Source: an uncultured Microthrixaceae bacterium (lineage in GTDB: Bacteria > Actinomycetota > Acidimicrobiia > Acidimicrobiales > VFJN01). From it: a DNA stretch of 64,000 nt. How positions within the stretch are numbered: the first letter of the stretch is position 1; every line of letters begins with the position of its first letter. Location: the NCBI GenBank assembly GCA_963806205.1, contig CAWDXF010000003.1, forward strand, positions 71,760-135,759, read 5' to 3'. The notes below the pieces were generated by a model. That model saw nothing but the letters and a program-made list of their open reading frames with translations, was not told the origin of the DNA and did not search any database. The position numbers and the translations under genes are program-made. Of this stretch, positions 7,504 to 60,783 are shown one piece after another.

Positions 7504-7845
7504 CTAGGTCACCCACCTGACGACGGCGGCCACGTCGAGCGTGATGATCAGGAAGGCGCTGCAGACCATGACCCAGCGGAAGAGCGGGCCGGCACGGCTG
7601 AGCTGCGCCTCTGCTCCGAACCCGAGGGGCGCCCCGGTCGCGGCGCCGGCTGCGAACATGCCGAGCCGGCCGGGTCCTGTCGTCGCGGAGACGTCGGCAC
7701 AGGCGATGCCCATCGCGACAGCCGTGAACGCCATGGTCCCCAGCGCGGCTCGGGAGCGGCCGAGCCACCTGTGCTCCACGTGGGTGTCGAACGCGCGCAG
7801 CTGGATCGCACGACGCGGGTGAGCGAGCTCCCTCACGGTGTCCAT
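7504..7845 (-). CDS. Hypothetical membrane protein
   Basis: 113-aa ORF with moderate GC3 bias and hydrophobic segments MAFTAVAMGIAC and VMVCSAFLIITLDVAAVV. Confidence 0.4.
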   Translation of the reverse strand: MDTVRELAHPRRAIQLRAFDTHVEHRWLGRSRAALGTMAFTAVAMGIACADVSATTGPGRLGMFAAGAATGAPLGFGAEAQLSRAGPLFRWVMVCSAFLIITLDVAAVVRWVT

Positions 7846-8127
7846 GGATGCTCCCGGTTCGCCTCAGGTGCGCCACCAGGGTCCAGAGCAACGCTTCGGA
7901 GGACAACCTAACCCCTCCGGGGGGACGCGCGGGACGGAACGGGCGTACGGTGCACCCAACACGACAAGACCCGCACGTGTGGGACCAGGCAGCGCCTGGC
8001 CCGGGAGCTCTGCTCCGGCCCCTGGTAGCGCTCATGAAGCGCTCATGTACCAGGAGGATGCGATGGCTCTTGCCGAGCTCCCCGTCACCCAGGCCGCTCC
8101 GCGATCACCACCTCGACCCGCTGCGCC

Positions 8128-9625: not shown

Positions 9626-9729
9626 GCGGCGTGACGCCTGGCACGGCGAGCGGGGGTTAGCCTCGGACTAGCCTCCGTGTGGGACGGGTCCCTCGTTCGA
9701 GGGCGCGTGACATCGCAGGGCGGAAAACG

Positions 9730-10722
9730 ATGGCGTATCCCGTGGTCGTAGTGAAGCAGTCGGGCCGACGTCCGCTGTACGTCGAGATCCGTGAGCAGGT
9801 GGAGATCGGCCGCGACTGCGACGGCATCCTCCTCACCGATCCGCAGTGCTCGCGACGCCACGCGATGCTGAGCCCGCGCGGCGAGTCCGTGGTCGTGGAG
9901 GACCTCGGGAGCACGAACGGCACGCTGTTCGACGGGAACCGGATCACCTCGGCCGTCGTGCTCATGGCCGGGTCCGTCGTCAACATCGGCGAGACCGTGC
10001 TCCAGCTCGCCACCGACCACGCGGCTCGCACGTCCGGCGGTGGGCTCCCAGGCGCCAACCTCACCGTCACGGGGGGCACCGACAGCCCGCTCGCCGCGGT
10101 CCGGGCCGTGCCCTCAGGGCCCCAGGACCTGCGCGAGACCTCGATGGAGTCGGTGGCCCGCGCGGTGAACAAGGCCCTTCCGTCGCTGCACGCGGTGCAA
10201 CAGGACCGCGGCACGATCACGATCGTGTTCAGCGACATCGAGTCGTCGACCGAGCGGGCCACCGCGATGGGCGACGCCGCCTGGATGAAGGTGCTCGCCG
10301 CGCACAACGACATCATCCAGCGGCACGTGGCCACCTGGGAGGGCAGCGTCGTCAAGAACCAGGGGGACGGCTTCATGCTCACCTTCGGCGGTGCCCGGCG
10401 GGCGCTGCGGGCGATGATCGAGGTGCAGCAGGAGCTGTCCGAGTCCGAGCTGGTCGGCGGGGTCCGCATCCGCGTCGGGGTGCACACCGGTGAGGTCATC
10501 TCGGAGGAGGGCGACATCTTCGGCAAGCACGTCATGCAGGCCGCCCGGGTCGGCGGGCAGGCCGAGGGCGGCGAGATCCTCGTGTCCTCGCTCGTGCGGG
10601 AGATCGCGTCGGCCCGCGGCGACCTCACGTTCGGCGAGCCCCGCACCGTGCAGCTGAAGGGCATCGAGGGCGACCACGTGGTCTACCCGGTGATCTGGGA
10701 GGACTTCACCGCCGAGGACTAG
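9730..10722 (+). CDS. FHA domain-class III adenylate/guanylate cyclase fusion protein
   Basis: N-terminal FHA (EIGRDCDGILLTDPQCSRRHAML...VEDLGSTNGTLFDG). C-terminal cyclase (TIVFSDIESSTERA...GDGFMLTFG...RIRVGVHTGEV). The start is ATG 9730 or GTG 9679. Confidence 0.85.
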   Translation: MAYPVVVVKQSGRRPLYVEIREQVEIGRDCDGILLTDPQCSRRHAMLSPRGESVVVEDLGSTNGTLFDGNRITSAVVLMAGSVVNIGETVLQLATDHAARTSGGGLPGANLTVTGGTDSPLAAVRAVPSGPQDLRETSMESVARAVNKALPSLHAVQQDRGTITIVFSDIESSTERATAMGDAAWMKVLAAHNDIIQRHVATWEGSVVKNQGDGFMLTFGGARRALRAMIEVQQELSESELVGGVRIRVGVHTGEVISEEGDIFGKHVMQAARVGGQAEGGEILVSSLVREIASARGDLTFGEPRTVQLKGIEGDHVVYPVIWEDFTAED

Positions 10723-57290: not shown

Positions 57291-58094
57291 GTGCGCCCCG
57301 TGCGCCGGCTCTGGCCCGACCCCGCGGCGGTCGACGACGTCGACGCCCTCGTCGCCGCGGAGGAGCGCCCACCGCCCGTCGGGCGGCCGTGGCTGCTGGT
57401 CAACATGATCTCGTCGCTCGACGGCGCCATCACCGTCGAGGGGCGCAGCGGCGGGCTGGGAGGCCCAGCGGACCGCGCCGTCTTCCACGCGCTGCGCGCG
57501 GCCGGCGACGTCGTGCTCGCCGGCGCGGGTACCGTGCGGGCCGAGCGCTACGGCCCGGCGCGACCGTCGGAGGCCCAGCGCGCGGCCCGCCGGGCCCGGG
57601 GGCAGGCGGAGGCCCCGGCGATCGCGGTGGTGACGCGCTCCCTCGACCTCGACCTCACCAGCAAGCTGTTCACGGCCGCCGACCCGCCGACGATCGTGAT
57701 CACCTGCGCGGCTGCGCCCGCCGAGCGACGCCACCTGGTGGCCGAGCAGGCCGATCTCATCGTGGCCGGGCAGGACGACGTGGACCTGGCCGCCGCCCTG
57801 GCGGAGCTCGCGGCGCGCGGCGTGGACGTGGTGACCTGCGAGGGCGGTCCGCGCCTCAACGGCGACCTGCTCGCCGCCGACCTGGTCGACGAGTGGAACC
57901 TCACGCTCGCACCGGTGCTGGTGGGCGACACGTCGGACCGCGCCAGCACGGGGCCACGCCCGGCCGCACCCCGGCAGCTCCGCCTGGACCGCCTCCTCGA
58001 GGGCGACGGCCTGGTGATCGGCCGCTGGGTGCGGGCGCAGGACGCGTCGAGGGCTCAGGTCCTCAGGGCAGCACGAGCCGCTGCCCCGCCATGA
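57291..58094 (+). CDS. RibD C-terminal domain / dihydrofolate reductase-like pyrimidine reductase family protein
   Basis: In-frame GTG 57291 within ORF 55074..58094. It has LLVNMISSLDGAITVEGRSGGLGGPADRAVFHALRAAGDVVLAGAGTVRAERY and CEGGPRLNGDLL. Confidence 0.8.
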   Translation: MRPVRRLWPDPAAVDDVDALVAAEERPPPVGRPWLLVNMISSLDGAITVEGRSGGLGGPADRAVFHALRAAGDVVLAGAGTVRAERYGPARPSEAQRAARRARGQAEAPAIAVVTRSLDLDLTSKLFTAADPPTIVITCAAAPAERRHLVAEQADLIVAGQDDVDLAAALAELAARGVDVVTCEGGPRLNGDLLAADLVDEWNLTLAPVLVGDTSDRASTGPRPAAPRQLRLDRLLEGDGLVIGRWVRAQDASRAQVLRAARAAAPP

Positions 58095-58530
58095 GCGGCG
58101 CATCGCCGTTGGCGGCGACGAGGCGGTCGACCGTGGCCCGAACGTCGCTGTCCGGGGTCAGCGACGCCGCGATCGACCAGAGCGTCTCGCCCGGCTGGAC
58201 GATGTGGATCTGCGTGGCAGCCGCCTCGACCGCGCCCAATGCGACGGCCGAGGCGGGCGAGGGAGCGCCGACGGCGGAGGAGGGGTGGCCGCCGCCGGCG
58301 AGCCTGGCCGAGATGGCGCCGACCAGGAGGACGAGGACCACCACGACGGTGGCCAGGACGCCGAGGGCCACGGCCCGCCGGCGGCGGTAGACGGCTCGCC
58401 GCGCGAGCCGATCCGGGGCCCGGCCGCCCTGCAGGACCCGCAGCGTGGGCCGGGGCGGCTCGTCGGGCCCCGTCGGCCCCGTGGTGGGCAGGAGGCGGAG
58501 CGCAGGGCTGATGTGGAGGGCTGCGGTCAT
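58063..58530 (-). CDS. LysM-domain membrane protein, divergent from lexA
   Basis: From ATG 58530. It has a TM (VALGVLATVVVVLVLLVGAI) and a C-terminal LysM (IVQPGETLWSIAASL...). Confidence 0.8.
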   Translation of the reverse strand: MTAALHISPALRLLPTTGPTGPDEPPRPTLRVLQGGRAPDRLARRAVYRRRRAVALGVLATVVVVLVLLVGAISARLAGGGHPSSAVGAPSPASAVALGAVEAAATQIHIVQPGETLWSIAASLTPDSDVRATVDRLVAANGDAPLMAGQRLVLP

Positions 58531-58560
58531 GGGGTCATTCTCCGGAGCGGGTGTGACATC

Positions 58561-58714
58561 TCGGAACGCCTGTTCCCGGGAACGTGCGTTCGGTCTGCCC
58601 GGGCATCGTACCCCCGAACGTCCGTTCGCCGTCAACCCCCAGCCGAACAGCCGTCCGCCGAACGGGTGTTTGCATCGCCGGCGCCTCGGCGGTACCCTGC
58701 CGAACACCTGTACG
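58561..58714. promoter_or_regulatory. Array of six LexA (SOS) boxes, GAAC-N4-GTxC
   Basis: Three boxes match the arms exactly: GGAACgcctGTTCC (58563..58576), GAACgtgcGTTC (58580..58591) and CGAACgtccGTTCG (58615..58628). Three are imperfect: CGAACagccGTCCG (58644..58657), CGAACgggtGTTTG (58659..58672) and CGAACacctGTACG (58701..58714). The actinobacterial consensus is TCGAAC-N4-GTTCGA. Confidence 0.8.
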
Positions 58715-58729
58715 TCCACGGAGGTTCTC

Positions 58730-59362
58730 ATGGCCGACGTCACGCTCACCCCCCGCCAGCGGGAGATCCTCGAGGTCATCGAGCAGCACCAGCGGGACCG
58801 CGGCTTCCCTCCGTCGGTGCGGGAGATCGGCGAGGCCGTGGGCCTCACCTCCCCCTCCACGGTCCACGCCCACCTCGCCACCCTCCAGAAGCTGGGCTTC
58901 CTGCGCCGGGACCCCACGAAGCCCCGGGCCATCGAGGTGCGGTTCGACGCCACCTCGGGTGCCCCGGTGGACCGCCGCCCGGTGCGCCACGTGCCCCTGG
59001 TGGGTGATGTCGCAGCCGGCACCGACGTGCTGGCCCAGGAGAACATCGAGGAGACGCTCCCCCTCCCCGCCGACTTCACCGGCGAGGGCGACCTGTTCAT
59101 GCTGCGGGTGCGCGGCGACTCGATGGTCGACGTCGCCATCCTCGACGGGGACTACGTGGTCTGCCGGGCCCAGACCACGGCCGACAACGGCGAGATCGTG
59201 GTGGCGGGCATCCCCGGGGACGAGGCCACCGTGAAGACGTACCGCCGCAAGGGCGGCACGATCACCCTGCTGCCGGCGAACGAGCGCTACGCGCCCATCG
59301 AGCTGCCTGCTTCCGACGTCGCCGTGTTCGGCCGCGTCGTCACGGTCTTGCGCCGCCTCTGA
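58730..59362 (+). CDS. lexA: LexA repressor
   Basis: ATG 58730 follows GGAGG. It has LTPRQREILEVI...GFPPSVREIGEAVGLTSPSTVHAHL, the cleavage region VPLVGDVAAG, and catalytic RVRGDSM and VKTY. Confidence 0.95.
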   Translation: MADVTLTPRQREILEVIEQHQRDRGFPPSVREIGEAVGLTSPSTVHAHLATLQKLGFLRRDPTKPRAIEVRFDATSGAPVDRRPVRHVPLVGDVAAGTDVLAQENIEETLPLPADFTGEGDLFMLRVRGDSMVDVAILDGDYVVCRAQTTADNGEIVVAGIPGDEATVKTYRRKGGTITLLPANERYAPIELPASDVAVFGRVVTVLRRL

Positions 59363-59417: not shown

Positions 59418-60751
59418 ATGCCCACCACCCGCCTCCTCGCGCGCGCCTGCGCGGTGGTCGCGCTGGCGGTGGTCGCGCCCACCTCGGTGGCGCAGGGCGC
59501 GGCCGTCGCGAACGACCCGGTGTACACGCAGGGGCTGCAGTGGGGGCTCGAGAAGATCGGGGCGCCGCAGGCCTGGGCGGCCGGCACCGGTCAGGGCATC
59601 ACGATCGCGGTGATCGACTCGGGCATCGACCTCGCCCACGAGGACCTGGCCGACAAGGTCGACGCCAACACCAGCTGCATCGGCACCGGGGGTGACCCCG
59701 GCCGCTGCACCGGATCCGCCCAGGACGACAACGGCCACGGCACCCACGTGGCGGGCATCGCGGCCGCCAAGACGAACAACGGCCGAGGCATGGCCGGGGT
59801 GGCCCCAGACGCCCGGATCATCGCCGTGCGGGTGCTGGCCAACGAGTGCAACGAGGCCGGGTGCACCGCCACCGGCACGGCCGGCGACGTGGCCGCCGGG
59901 ATCCGCTGGGCCACCGACCACGGCGCCGACATCGTGAACCTGTCCCTCGGTGGGGGCACGCTCCAGGGCACCCTCGGGTGCGCGTTCTGCGACGCCATCG
60001 ACTACGCGTGGAGCCGCGGCACCATCGCGGTGATCGCGGCCGGCAACGACTCGCTGCTCCCGGCCGGCTTCGGCGACGAGCCCGCGGTCATCGTCACGGC
60101 CACGACCCGCGAGGACGCCCGCGCGCGTCCTACTCGAACACCACCTCGGGCGTGCTCCGCACCGCGCGCTGGCCGGTGGCCGCGCCCGGTGGCGAGGGCG
60201 AGACCAGCGCCGCGGACTGTGCGACCGGCGGCCGCCCGAAGGGCGTGCTGTCGACCTACTGGATCGACGGCGAGCGCGACCAGTACGCGTGCCTGGCCGG
60301 CACCTCGATGGCCGCGCCGCACGTGTCCGGTGCGCTCGCGATCCTGCGCGGCCAGGGTCTCGGCCCGCAGGCCGCGGTCGACCGACTGCTCGGCACCGCG
60401 CGCGACCTCGGCGACGCGGGCCGCGATCCCTCCTTCGGCGTCGGCCTCATCGACCTCGCGGCCGCAGCCGGGCCTGGTCCCGACCCGACCACGAGCTCCG
60501 CCGTGGCCAGCACGACCAGGGGGACCGCCGCGCCCGGCACGACGGGTGCCACCGTCCCACCGACCACCACGCCCACGGTCGCACCACCCGACACGCTGCC
60601 GAGCACCGAGCAGGCGGCACCCTTCACGGGCAGGTCGCAGACGACCGAGGATCCCGGCGGCTGGCTCGTGGGCGTCGCCATCGCCCTGCTCACCGCGGCA
60701 TCGGTGGCCACGGCCAGCGTGGCCTGGCGCCTCAGCGGCCGCGTCCGCTGA
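59418..60751 (+). pseudogene. Subtilisin-like (S8) serine protease with P/T-rich linker and C-terminal TM anchor, one frame break near 60125
   Basis: Signal peptide present. Catalytic residues are D (AVIDSGID), H (HGTHVAG), and after the frame change S (GTSMAAPHVSG). ORFs 59418.. and 59846..60751 join colinearly. Confidence 0.85.
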
Positions 60752-60783
60752 CCACGCCGGCTAGCGCGAGCTGCTCGCTTCGC

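Follow-up and report, generated by a model that had tools for sequence, protein, structure and literature searches.

The divergent gene pair considered here lies within a 64-kb window (the whole 64,000-nt stretch of DNA that was analysed, from an uncultured Microthrixaceae bacterium) and consists of lexA, encoding the SOS repressor, and a small gene for a LysM-domain protein, here called lysM. The two genes share an intergenic region of 199 bp (58531-58729) that contains six LexA boxes, which two predicted back-to-back promoters appear to divide three and three (Table 1). The gene at 58730 is, by profile and motif criteria, a bona fide lexA. Its product combines an N-terminal LexA DNA-binding domain (PF01726) with an S24 peptidase domain (PF00717) in Pfam, scores 227.8 bits against the TIGR00498 equivalog model (cut-off 111) and is matched by solved LexA structures in the PDB, with a best E-value of 8.7e-36. 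Both the cleavage site and the Ser/Lys dyad are present, as Ala-Gly at 96-97 (AAG 95-97), the Ser of GDSM (motif at 129) and the Lys of VKT (motif at 168).

The lysM product has an Arg/Pro-rich N-terminus, a single transmembrane (TM) helix at residues 55-73 (Kyte-Doolittle 2.99) and a C-terminal LysM domain at residues 109-155 (Pfam, E = 5.2e-07). An NCBIfam search assigned it to no family, and a PDB search returned just one marginal, generic LysM match. The predicted architecture and the position next to lexA are those of the SOS-induced division inhibitors YneA and ChiZ. At every related locus with enough upstream DNA, a TM + LysM gene is likewise divergent from lexA across a common control region, consistent with the joint control of the two genes that had been proposed in an initial annotation of this DNA.

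To define the boxes, the window was searched for a GAAC-N4-GTTC core at up to one mismatch. The six boxes have cores spanning 58564-58713; half of these are perfect, the other half deviate at one position of the right arm, and a repeat finder recovered the same units independently. The left half of boxes 3-6 is CGAAC. From box 1 to box 6 the centre-to-centre distances are 16, 36, 29, 15 and 42 bp, and the array runs from box 1, which starts 33 nt away from the start of lysM, to box 6, whose end is 16 nt ahead of the lexA ATG. The initial annotation had listed six GAAC-N4-GTxC elements with these arms, spacings and distances to the genes, as well as the GGAGG ahead of lexA, and all are present where it placed them. 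Its reading of the elements as LexA boxes also stands, as the boxes conform to the Gram-positive/actinobacterial LexA operator type (Cheo or SOS box), with the consensus CGAAC-N4-GTTCG (PMC2248561), and the adjacent gene is a genuine lexA.

Table 1. Features of the lexA/lysM control region and its two genes, in window coordinates.
Feature	Position	Strand	Remarks
lysM gene	58063..58530	-	155 aa; ATG at 58530
Non-LexA element TGTCACAC-N8-GAGAAT	58537..58558	-	followed by 6 nt, then the lysM ATG
LexA box 1 GGAACgcctGTTCC	58563..58576		core 58564-75, 0 mismatches
LexA box 2 GGAACgtgcGTTCG	58579..58592		core 58580-91, 0 mismatches
Predicted -10 of distal lysM promoter, TACGAT	58605..58610	-	19-nt spacer
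LexA box 3 CGAACgtccGTTCG	58615..58628		core 58616-27, 0 mismatches; perfect 14-mer
Predicted -35 of distal lysM promoter, TTGACG	58630..58635	-	GTCAA invariant in alignment
LexA box 4 CGAACagccGTCCG	58644..58657		core 58645-56, 1 mismatch (GTCC)
LexA box 5 CGAACgggtGTTTG	58659..58672		core 58660-71, 1 mismatch (GTTT)
Predicted -35 of P_lexA, TTGCAT	58670..58675	+	conserved hexamer
Predicted -10 of P_lexA, TACCCT	58693..58698	+	GTA...T invariant in 19-sequence alignment
LexA box 6 CGAACacctGTACG	58701..58714		core 58702-13, 1 mismatch (GTAC)
Shine-Dalgarno GGAGG of lexA	58720..58724	+	5 nt before ATG; GGAGG kept in alignment
lexA	58730..59362	+	210 aa; ATG at 58730

Taken as a whole, the window is not enriched in the motif: it holds 15 matches at up to one mismatch, versus 13.9 ± 4.1 in shuffles. 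This overall figure is what could be said for regarding the cluster as an artefact of chance or composition, such as low-complexity or repeat DNA at the 73% GC (guanine plus cytosine) of this genome. The local figures are very different, since six of the 15 matches fall within 150 bp, where 0.043 would be expected for the full 199 bp (Poisson P(>=6) = 8.5e-12), and the motif is ~200-fold denser in the lexA/lysM gap than in the rest of the window. The gap also holds every perfect box of the window, three in number, and outside it no 200-bp stretch holds more than one box. Furthermore, 425 kb of DNA flanking 80 related loci contains just three perfect boxes, and the array itself is conserved in these 80 independent genomes. 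A chance origin of the cluster is refuted by its local density, its conservation in relatives and the rarity of perfect boxes in the flanks, and we assign it next to no probability.

The nine other sites of the window at up to one mismatch were considered as possible further LexA-controlled promoters; they occur at chance density and none is perfect. Just one of them is intergenic, a lone one-mismatch box, GGAACgggcGTACG, at 7936-7949. It sits in a divergent intergenic region between a small open reading frame (ORF) ending at 7845 (-) and ORFs starting at ~8128, and could be a single LexA site or a chance match.

Conservation was assessed across relatives collected by a scan with the LexA protein, keeping one genome per species. 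This afforded 80 loci, all from Acidimicrobiales (Microthrixaceae, Ilumatobacteraceae, Iamiaceae and further metagenome-assembled genomes), with LexA proteins 73-94% identical to that of the window. Within 350 bp upstream of lexA, all 80 loci carry boxes whose order is the same and whose number ranges from 2 to 7, being 4-6 in most. When 19 Microthrixaceae intergenic regions were aligned, the box arms proved invariant and the spacers separating them had diverged or were full of indels. Within this alignment the arms of box 2 are invariant, as are CGAAC, G190, T191 and A192 of box 6. The boxes are thus kept in relatives, as the initial annotation's reading implied. An Rfam search of 58300-58900 at E<=1 returned one meaningless sub-threshold microRNA match, and no known RNA element accounts for the conservation.

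For box occupancy we used 72 regions in which box 3 with its adjoining GTCAA and box 5 with its adjoining TTG served as anchors; the anchor formed by box 3 and GTCAA was found in almost all loci. Boxes 2, 3 and 5 are present in 72/72 anchored regions and box 6 in 59 at up to one mismatch, close relatives having GTAT, while box 4 occurs in 44 and box 1 in 30. The complete six-box layout is found in 19 regions, from Microthrixaceae and Ilumatobacteraceae alike. Two spacings are nearly fixed: boxes 4 and 5 are 15 bp apart in 41/44 regions, and boxes 1 and 2 in 29/30, the sole exception being the window itself, at 16 bp. The distance between boxes 3 and 4 is 29-31 bp, that between boxes 2 and 3 is variable, and that between boxes 5 and 6 falls into two classes of ~24 bp and 35-48 bp. 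Per base, the CGAAC left half-site of boxes 3-6 is 93-100% conserved, and in box 3 none of its five bases varies. The right arm of box 5 is GTTT in 92% of the 72 regions, and one Microthrixaceae subgroup has GTTC followed by TTGC.

The uneven occupancy raises the question of whether only the core boxes 2, 3, 5 and 6 are functional, with boxes 1 and 4 being near-neutral 15-bp tandem duplicates of a neighbouring box that have little regulatory effect. A four-box layout lacking these two ('-23-56') accounts for 23 of the 72 anchored regions. In this four-box group the -35 hexamers lie 15 bp closer together, with a box 3-5 distance of 28-31 bp versus 43-47 bp. Where the pairs 4/5 and 1/2 are present, as in the window, their members share flanks (gccGAAC and cggGAAC). 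We nonetheless consider this explanation unlikely. In Microthrixaceae the arms of boxes 1 and 4 have been kept although the neighbouring spacers diverge, the core of box 1 is perfect in the window, and the 15-bp pairs recur in Microthrixaceae and Ilumatobacteraceae, distant families in each of which LexA is just 73-77% identical to that of the window. A repeat or duplication origin of the entire array was also considered; we retain it solely to explain the emergence of boxes 1 and 4, and not in place of a function for the array. Boxes 1 and 4 are regarded as putative auxiliary sites paired with boxes 2 and 5, respectively.

The arrangement of the boxes is best understood relative to the predicted promoters. 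A scan of 58400-58850 for promoters and terminators of E. coli consensus found nothing, its criteria being too strict for an actinobacterium of 73% GC, and promoters were therefore predicted from conserved hexamers. On the lexA side, a TTGnnn hexamer followed after 16-18 nt by TAnnnT adjoins box 5 in 78/81 orthologous regions, with a 17-nt spacer in 73. On the lysM side, TTGAC abuts box 3 in all 79 regions in which box 3 could be anchored. Of the 21 closest sequences (the Microthrixaceae group, comprising the window and loci L001-L020), 17 have a TAnnnT hexamer after 19 nt, and NAnnnT is found 16-19 nt from the lysM -35 in 55/79 regions overall. From these patterns the call of a lexA promoter, P_lexA, appears strong, while that of a distal lysM promoter is weaker because its spacer is unusual and its -10 less regular.

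If the hexamers are correctly placed, they divide the six boxes 3+3 between two back-to-back promoters, and the array of six noted in the initial annotation would then not be a single one serving lexA. For lysM, box 3 lies within the -35/-10 spacer of the predicted distal promoter, box 2 at ~+8 to +19, and box 1 in the 5' untranslated region of the predicted transcript, 5 nt upstream of the TGTCACAC element discussed below. Box 4 falls in the interval separating the -35 hexamers and is ~52-54 bp upstream of either predicted start site, which would be near 58705 for lexA and near 58598 for the distal lysM transcript. For lexA, the right arm of box 5 overlaps the predicted -35, which explains the GTTT 'mismatch', and box 6 starts 3 nt past the predicted -10, covering the predicted transcription start.

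These positions also bear on an alternative raised in the initial annotation, in which part of the array would belong to a second regulator or serve for titration. Boxes 4-6 show consistent departures in their right arms (GTCC/GTGC, GTTT and GTAC), which makes a different specificity conceivable, for example that of a paralogous helix-turn-helix protein, and six sites beside the repressor's own gene would form an efficient local sink that buffers free LexA. However, the deviations of boxes 5 and 6 are accounted for by overlap with the -35 and -10 hexamers (TTGnnn, and TACGCT in Ilumatobacteraceae), and each box is placed where a promoter would be obstructed. The CGAAC half-site is strongly conserved in boxes 3-6, and stronger conservation of one half-site is known from actinobacterial lexA promoters (PMC2248561). 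Nothing points to a non-LexA regulator or a sink at the boxes, and we judge either to be very improbable. A second input is probable, but through the separate TGTCACAC-N8-GAGAAT element, which is the obvious place for a second regulator.

The predicted P_lexA differs in its distance to the start codon between families. In Microthrixaceae-type loci, including the window, lexA has a leader of ~25 nt with GGAGG. In Ilumatobacteraceae-type loci (L032-L034, L039-L044, L049, L052, L054-L062, L066-L067, L071, L075, L077-L080), the lexA ATG follows the conserved -10 by 1-7 nt, and lexA therefore appears to be leaderless there. The Ilumatobacteraceae-type -10, TACGCT, overlaps box 6 within the stretch of ~60 bp upstream of lexA.

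Between box 1 and the lysM ATG lies a second conserved element, read on the minus strand as TGTCACAC-N8-GAGAAT and seen on the plus strand of the 19-sequence alignment as an invariant GGTGTGACA. The exact 9-mer TGTCACAC has a single copy in the window and a single copy in each of 42 loci, invariably at this position. The geometry of the element is fixed in 47 sequences from several Acidimicrobiales families, with TGTCACA invariant, an 8-nt spacer and the hexamer GAGAmT, in which A at position 2 (A17) is 96% and T at position 6 (T21) 98% conserved; the ATG follows 6-7 nt on. No such element was found in the Ilumatobacteraceae loci. The mycobacterial RecA-NDp consensus is tTGTCRgtg-8nt-TAnnnT (PMC5656591), with which the element agrees in the TGTCR core, the 8-nt spacing and -10 positions 2 and 6. 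We consider it a candidate RecA-NDp/PafBC-type promoter that would give a leaderless lysM mRNA starting at 58530, the A of the ATG. The GGAG within the element may also act as a Shine-Dalgarno sequence for transcripts from the distal promoter. Two points speak against this role: the GGAG lies at a distance of 9-10 nt from the start codon, and a Shine-Dalgarno function leaves the invariant T unexplained.

A canonical RecA-NDp upstream half, TGTCGGTG-N8-GACGGT, was also observed at 10084-10063 (-). It lies inside a + strand ORF (9661-10722) and is therefore probably a chance match.

Overall, these observations are most consistent with a LexA-autoregulated lexA and an SOS-induced division-inhibitor gene of the YneA/ChiZ type whose two promoters are repressed through six operators, 3+3, a reading to which we assign a probability of roughly 75%. 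Two sigma-A-type promoters, back to back, would share the 199-bp control region, each of them repressed by LexA. Boxes 2 and 1, the 15/16-bp pair downstream of the distal lysM promoter, would act as roadblocks. In undamaged cells LexA dimers would occupy all sites, keeping lexA low and autoregulated and the TM + LysM protein off, and RecA-stimulated self-cleavage of LexA would then empty the operators; occupancy, repression and release are modelled here on established SOS biology. Several operators per promoter, with abutting pairs that are possibly cooperative, would make repression tight, and the division inhibitor would be induced late or steeply, at a higher damage threshold. The combination of autoregulation with multiple operators would also favour rapid re-repression. 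The proximal leaderless promoter at TGTCACAC-N8-GAGAAT probably adds a LexA-independent, PafBC-like input, as at Rv2719c of M. tuberculosis.

Several points weigh against this two-promoter, six-operator reading. The consensus scan returned no sigma-70 promoter, the promoter positions are taken purely from conservation, and the distal lysM promoter in the Microthrixaceae group requires an unusual 19-nt spacer. Boxes 4-6 are imperfect, and boxes 1 and 4 are missing from many related lineages and are therefore dispensable. The lysM product is tied to YneA and ChiZ through architecture and synteny rather than demonstrated sequence homology. The second element departs from the mycobacterial consensus in having cac for gtg and, as the first base of the -10, G for T. 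In a small sample with no obvious repair genes, made up of the 64-kb window and the DNA flanking the 80 loci, no further copies of the TGTCACAC type were found apart from the canonical half at 10084-10063, and membership of the element in a PafBC-like regulon accordingly stays hypothetical. Finally, the searchable literature yielded no binding or expression data for any Acidimicrobiia LexA.

Cooperative or graded control, as the initial annotation had suggested, is plausible given the near-invariant 15-bp pairs. A spacing of 15 bp between centres would put adjacent dimers on nearly opposite faces of the DNA, so that cooperativity is not guaranteed. A bolder version of the model takes the strict 15-bp pairs (1-2 and 4-5), retained in two distant Acidimicrobiales families, as the mark of an obligate dimer-of-dimers mode of LexA binding, under which the switch controlling the division inhibitor would be ultrasensitive and late-firing. 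With the leaderless PafBC-like promoter included, the ChiZ-like gene would be subject to a two-input DNA-damage checkpoint older than the divergence of Acidimicrobiia from Actinomycetes. We regard this extension as tentative and, on balance, doubtful.

The closest parallel is found in M. tuberculosis, where lexA (Rv2720) and Rv2719c (chiZ) share two LexA peaks in chromatin immunoprecipitation sequencing (ChIP-seq) and four SOS boxes, one regulating lexA and three, with 2, 2 and 3 mismatches, regulating Rv2719c (PMC3381160). Rv2719c also has a RecA-independent RecA_NDp promoter (PMC3381160), to which its induction is mostly attributed (PMC3381160, citing Dullaghan et al. 2002 and Brooks et al. 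2006). As in M. tuberculosis, lexA of the window is divergent from a small TM + LysM gene, with several boxes of the GAAC-N4-GTTC type in the shared region, and the LysM gene appears to have a multi-box control region with a RecA-NDp-like element beside its ATG. In contrast to the four boxes of M. tuberculosis, divided 1+3, the window has six, divided 3+3; its LysM-side boxes have perfect cores versus the mismatched ones of M. tuberculosis, and two pairs of boxes here keep a strict 15-bp spacing. The candidate PafBC element reads TGTCAcac in the window versus TGTCRgtg in the mycobacterial consensus. The M. tuberculosis boxes are supported by ChIP-seq, whereas those of Acidimicrobiia are predictions from sequence. 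The four boxes of M. tuberculosis also exceed the one or two that the initial annotation took to be typical of characterised actinobacterial lexA promoters, so that six boxes represent a quantitative step rather than a qualitative surprise.

Similar modules are known more widely. YneA of Bacillus and Listeria and ChiZ are SOS-induced division inhibitors with a TM helix and a LysM domain, encoded divergently next to lexA (PMC6851548), and a divergent pair of lexA and a TM + LysM division-inhibitor gene is likewise under LexA control in Clostridium (PMC8457756). Firmicutes lexA promoters contain 1-3 copies of the CGAAC-N4-GTTCG box at conserved positions, and actinobacterial ones have extra half-sites (PMC2248561). 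For S. venezuelae, surface plasmon resonance was used to test predicted sites, two of them upstream of lexA and three ahead of dnaE2 (PMC9380542). Like that of the window, the S. venezuelae repressor is an actinobacterial LexA, with fewer sites and with no LysM partner gene described in that paper (PMC9380542).

The lexA/yneA locus of B. subtilis, where both genes are under LexA control, resembles the window in having an SOS repressor gene divergent from a TM + LysM gene, and differs in belonging to another phylum; the window also has an extra, non-LexA promoter-like element. The B. subtilis intergenic region reportedly holds three boxes, as Kawai and co-workers (in 2003) and Au and co-workers (in 2005) are said to have described. 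By that count the window would have twice as many. In E. coli, several LexA operators on one promoter lead to tighter repression and later induction, with two boxes at lexA, three at recN and two overlapping boxes at the colicin genes, where the operators put two dimers ~15 bp apart. Unlike the window, E. coli has operators of the CTGT-N8-ACAG family, no divergent LysM gene and at most three sites per promoter. A literature search for five or six natural SOS or LexA boxes turned up just synthetic constructs in yeast and a four-box region of phage SPbeta, which is weak negative evidence.

The array is thus a richer, well-conserved version of a module known from M. tuberculosis and B. subtilis and not a new kind of system, and it leaves the current understanding of the SOS system unchanged. 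It differs from the known cases in its six boxes, the perfect cores on the LysM side, the 3+3 split, the fixed 15-bp pairs and the conservation across an order. A lexA/LysM-inhibitor module with multi-operator control is common to Mycobacterium and Bacillus, and the design is therefore very old. For Acidimicrobiales, an environmentally abundant order that is known largely from metagenomes and for whose LexA we found no study in the literature, these data offer the first sequence-level view of SOS control. The 3+3 layout with its fixed 15-bp pairs is well suited to testing how the number of operators and the distances between them set the threshold and timing of SOS genes. The TGTCACAC element provides a handle on whether a PafBC-type, LexA-independent damage response exists outside Actinomycetes. 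Experiments would be best directed at the 15-bp pairs and at the leaderless PafBC-like promoter.

Two observations concern the genes flanking the pair. The 3' end of lysM overlaps by ~30 bp (58063-58094) the end of a convergent + strand ORF that terminates at 58094, whose C-terminal part resembles, by eye, a RibD_C/dihydrofolate-reductase-like protein. Because of this overlap lysM appears to be monocistronic, with no nrdR downstream. Directly downstream of lexA, a subtilase (peptidase S8) gene at 59418-60764 is broken across two reading frames, with the Pfam S8 profile matched at positions 1-156 in the frame of 59418 and at positions 187-288 in that of 60098. The split points to a frameshift near 60100-60140, arising either from an assembly error or from a pseudogene.

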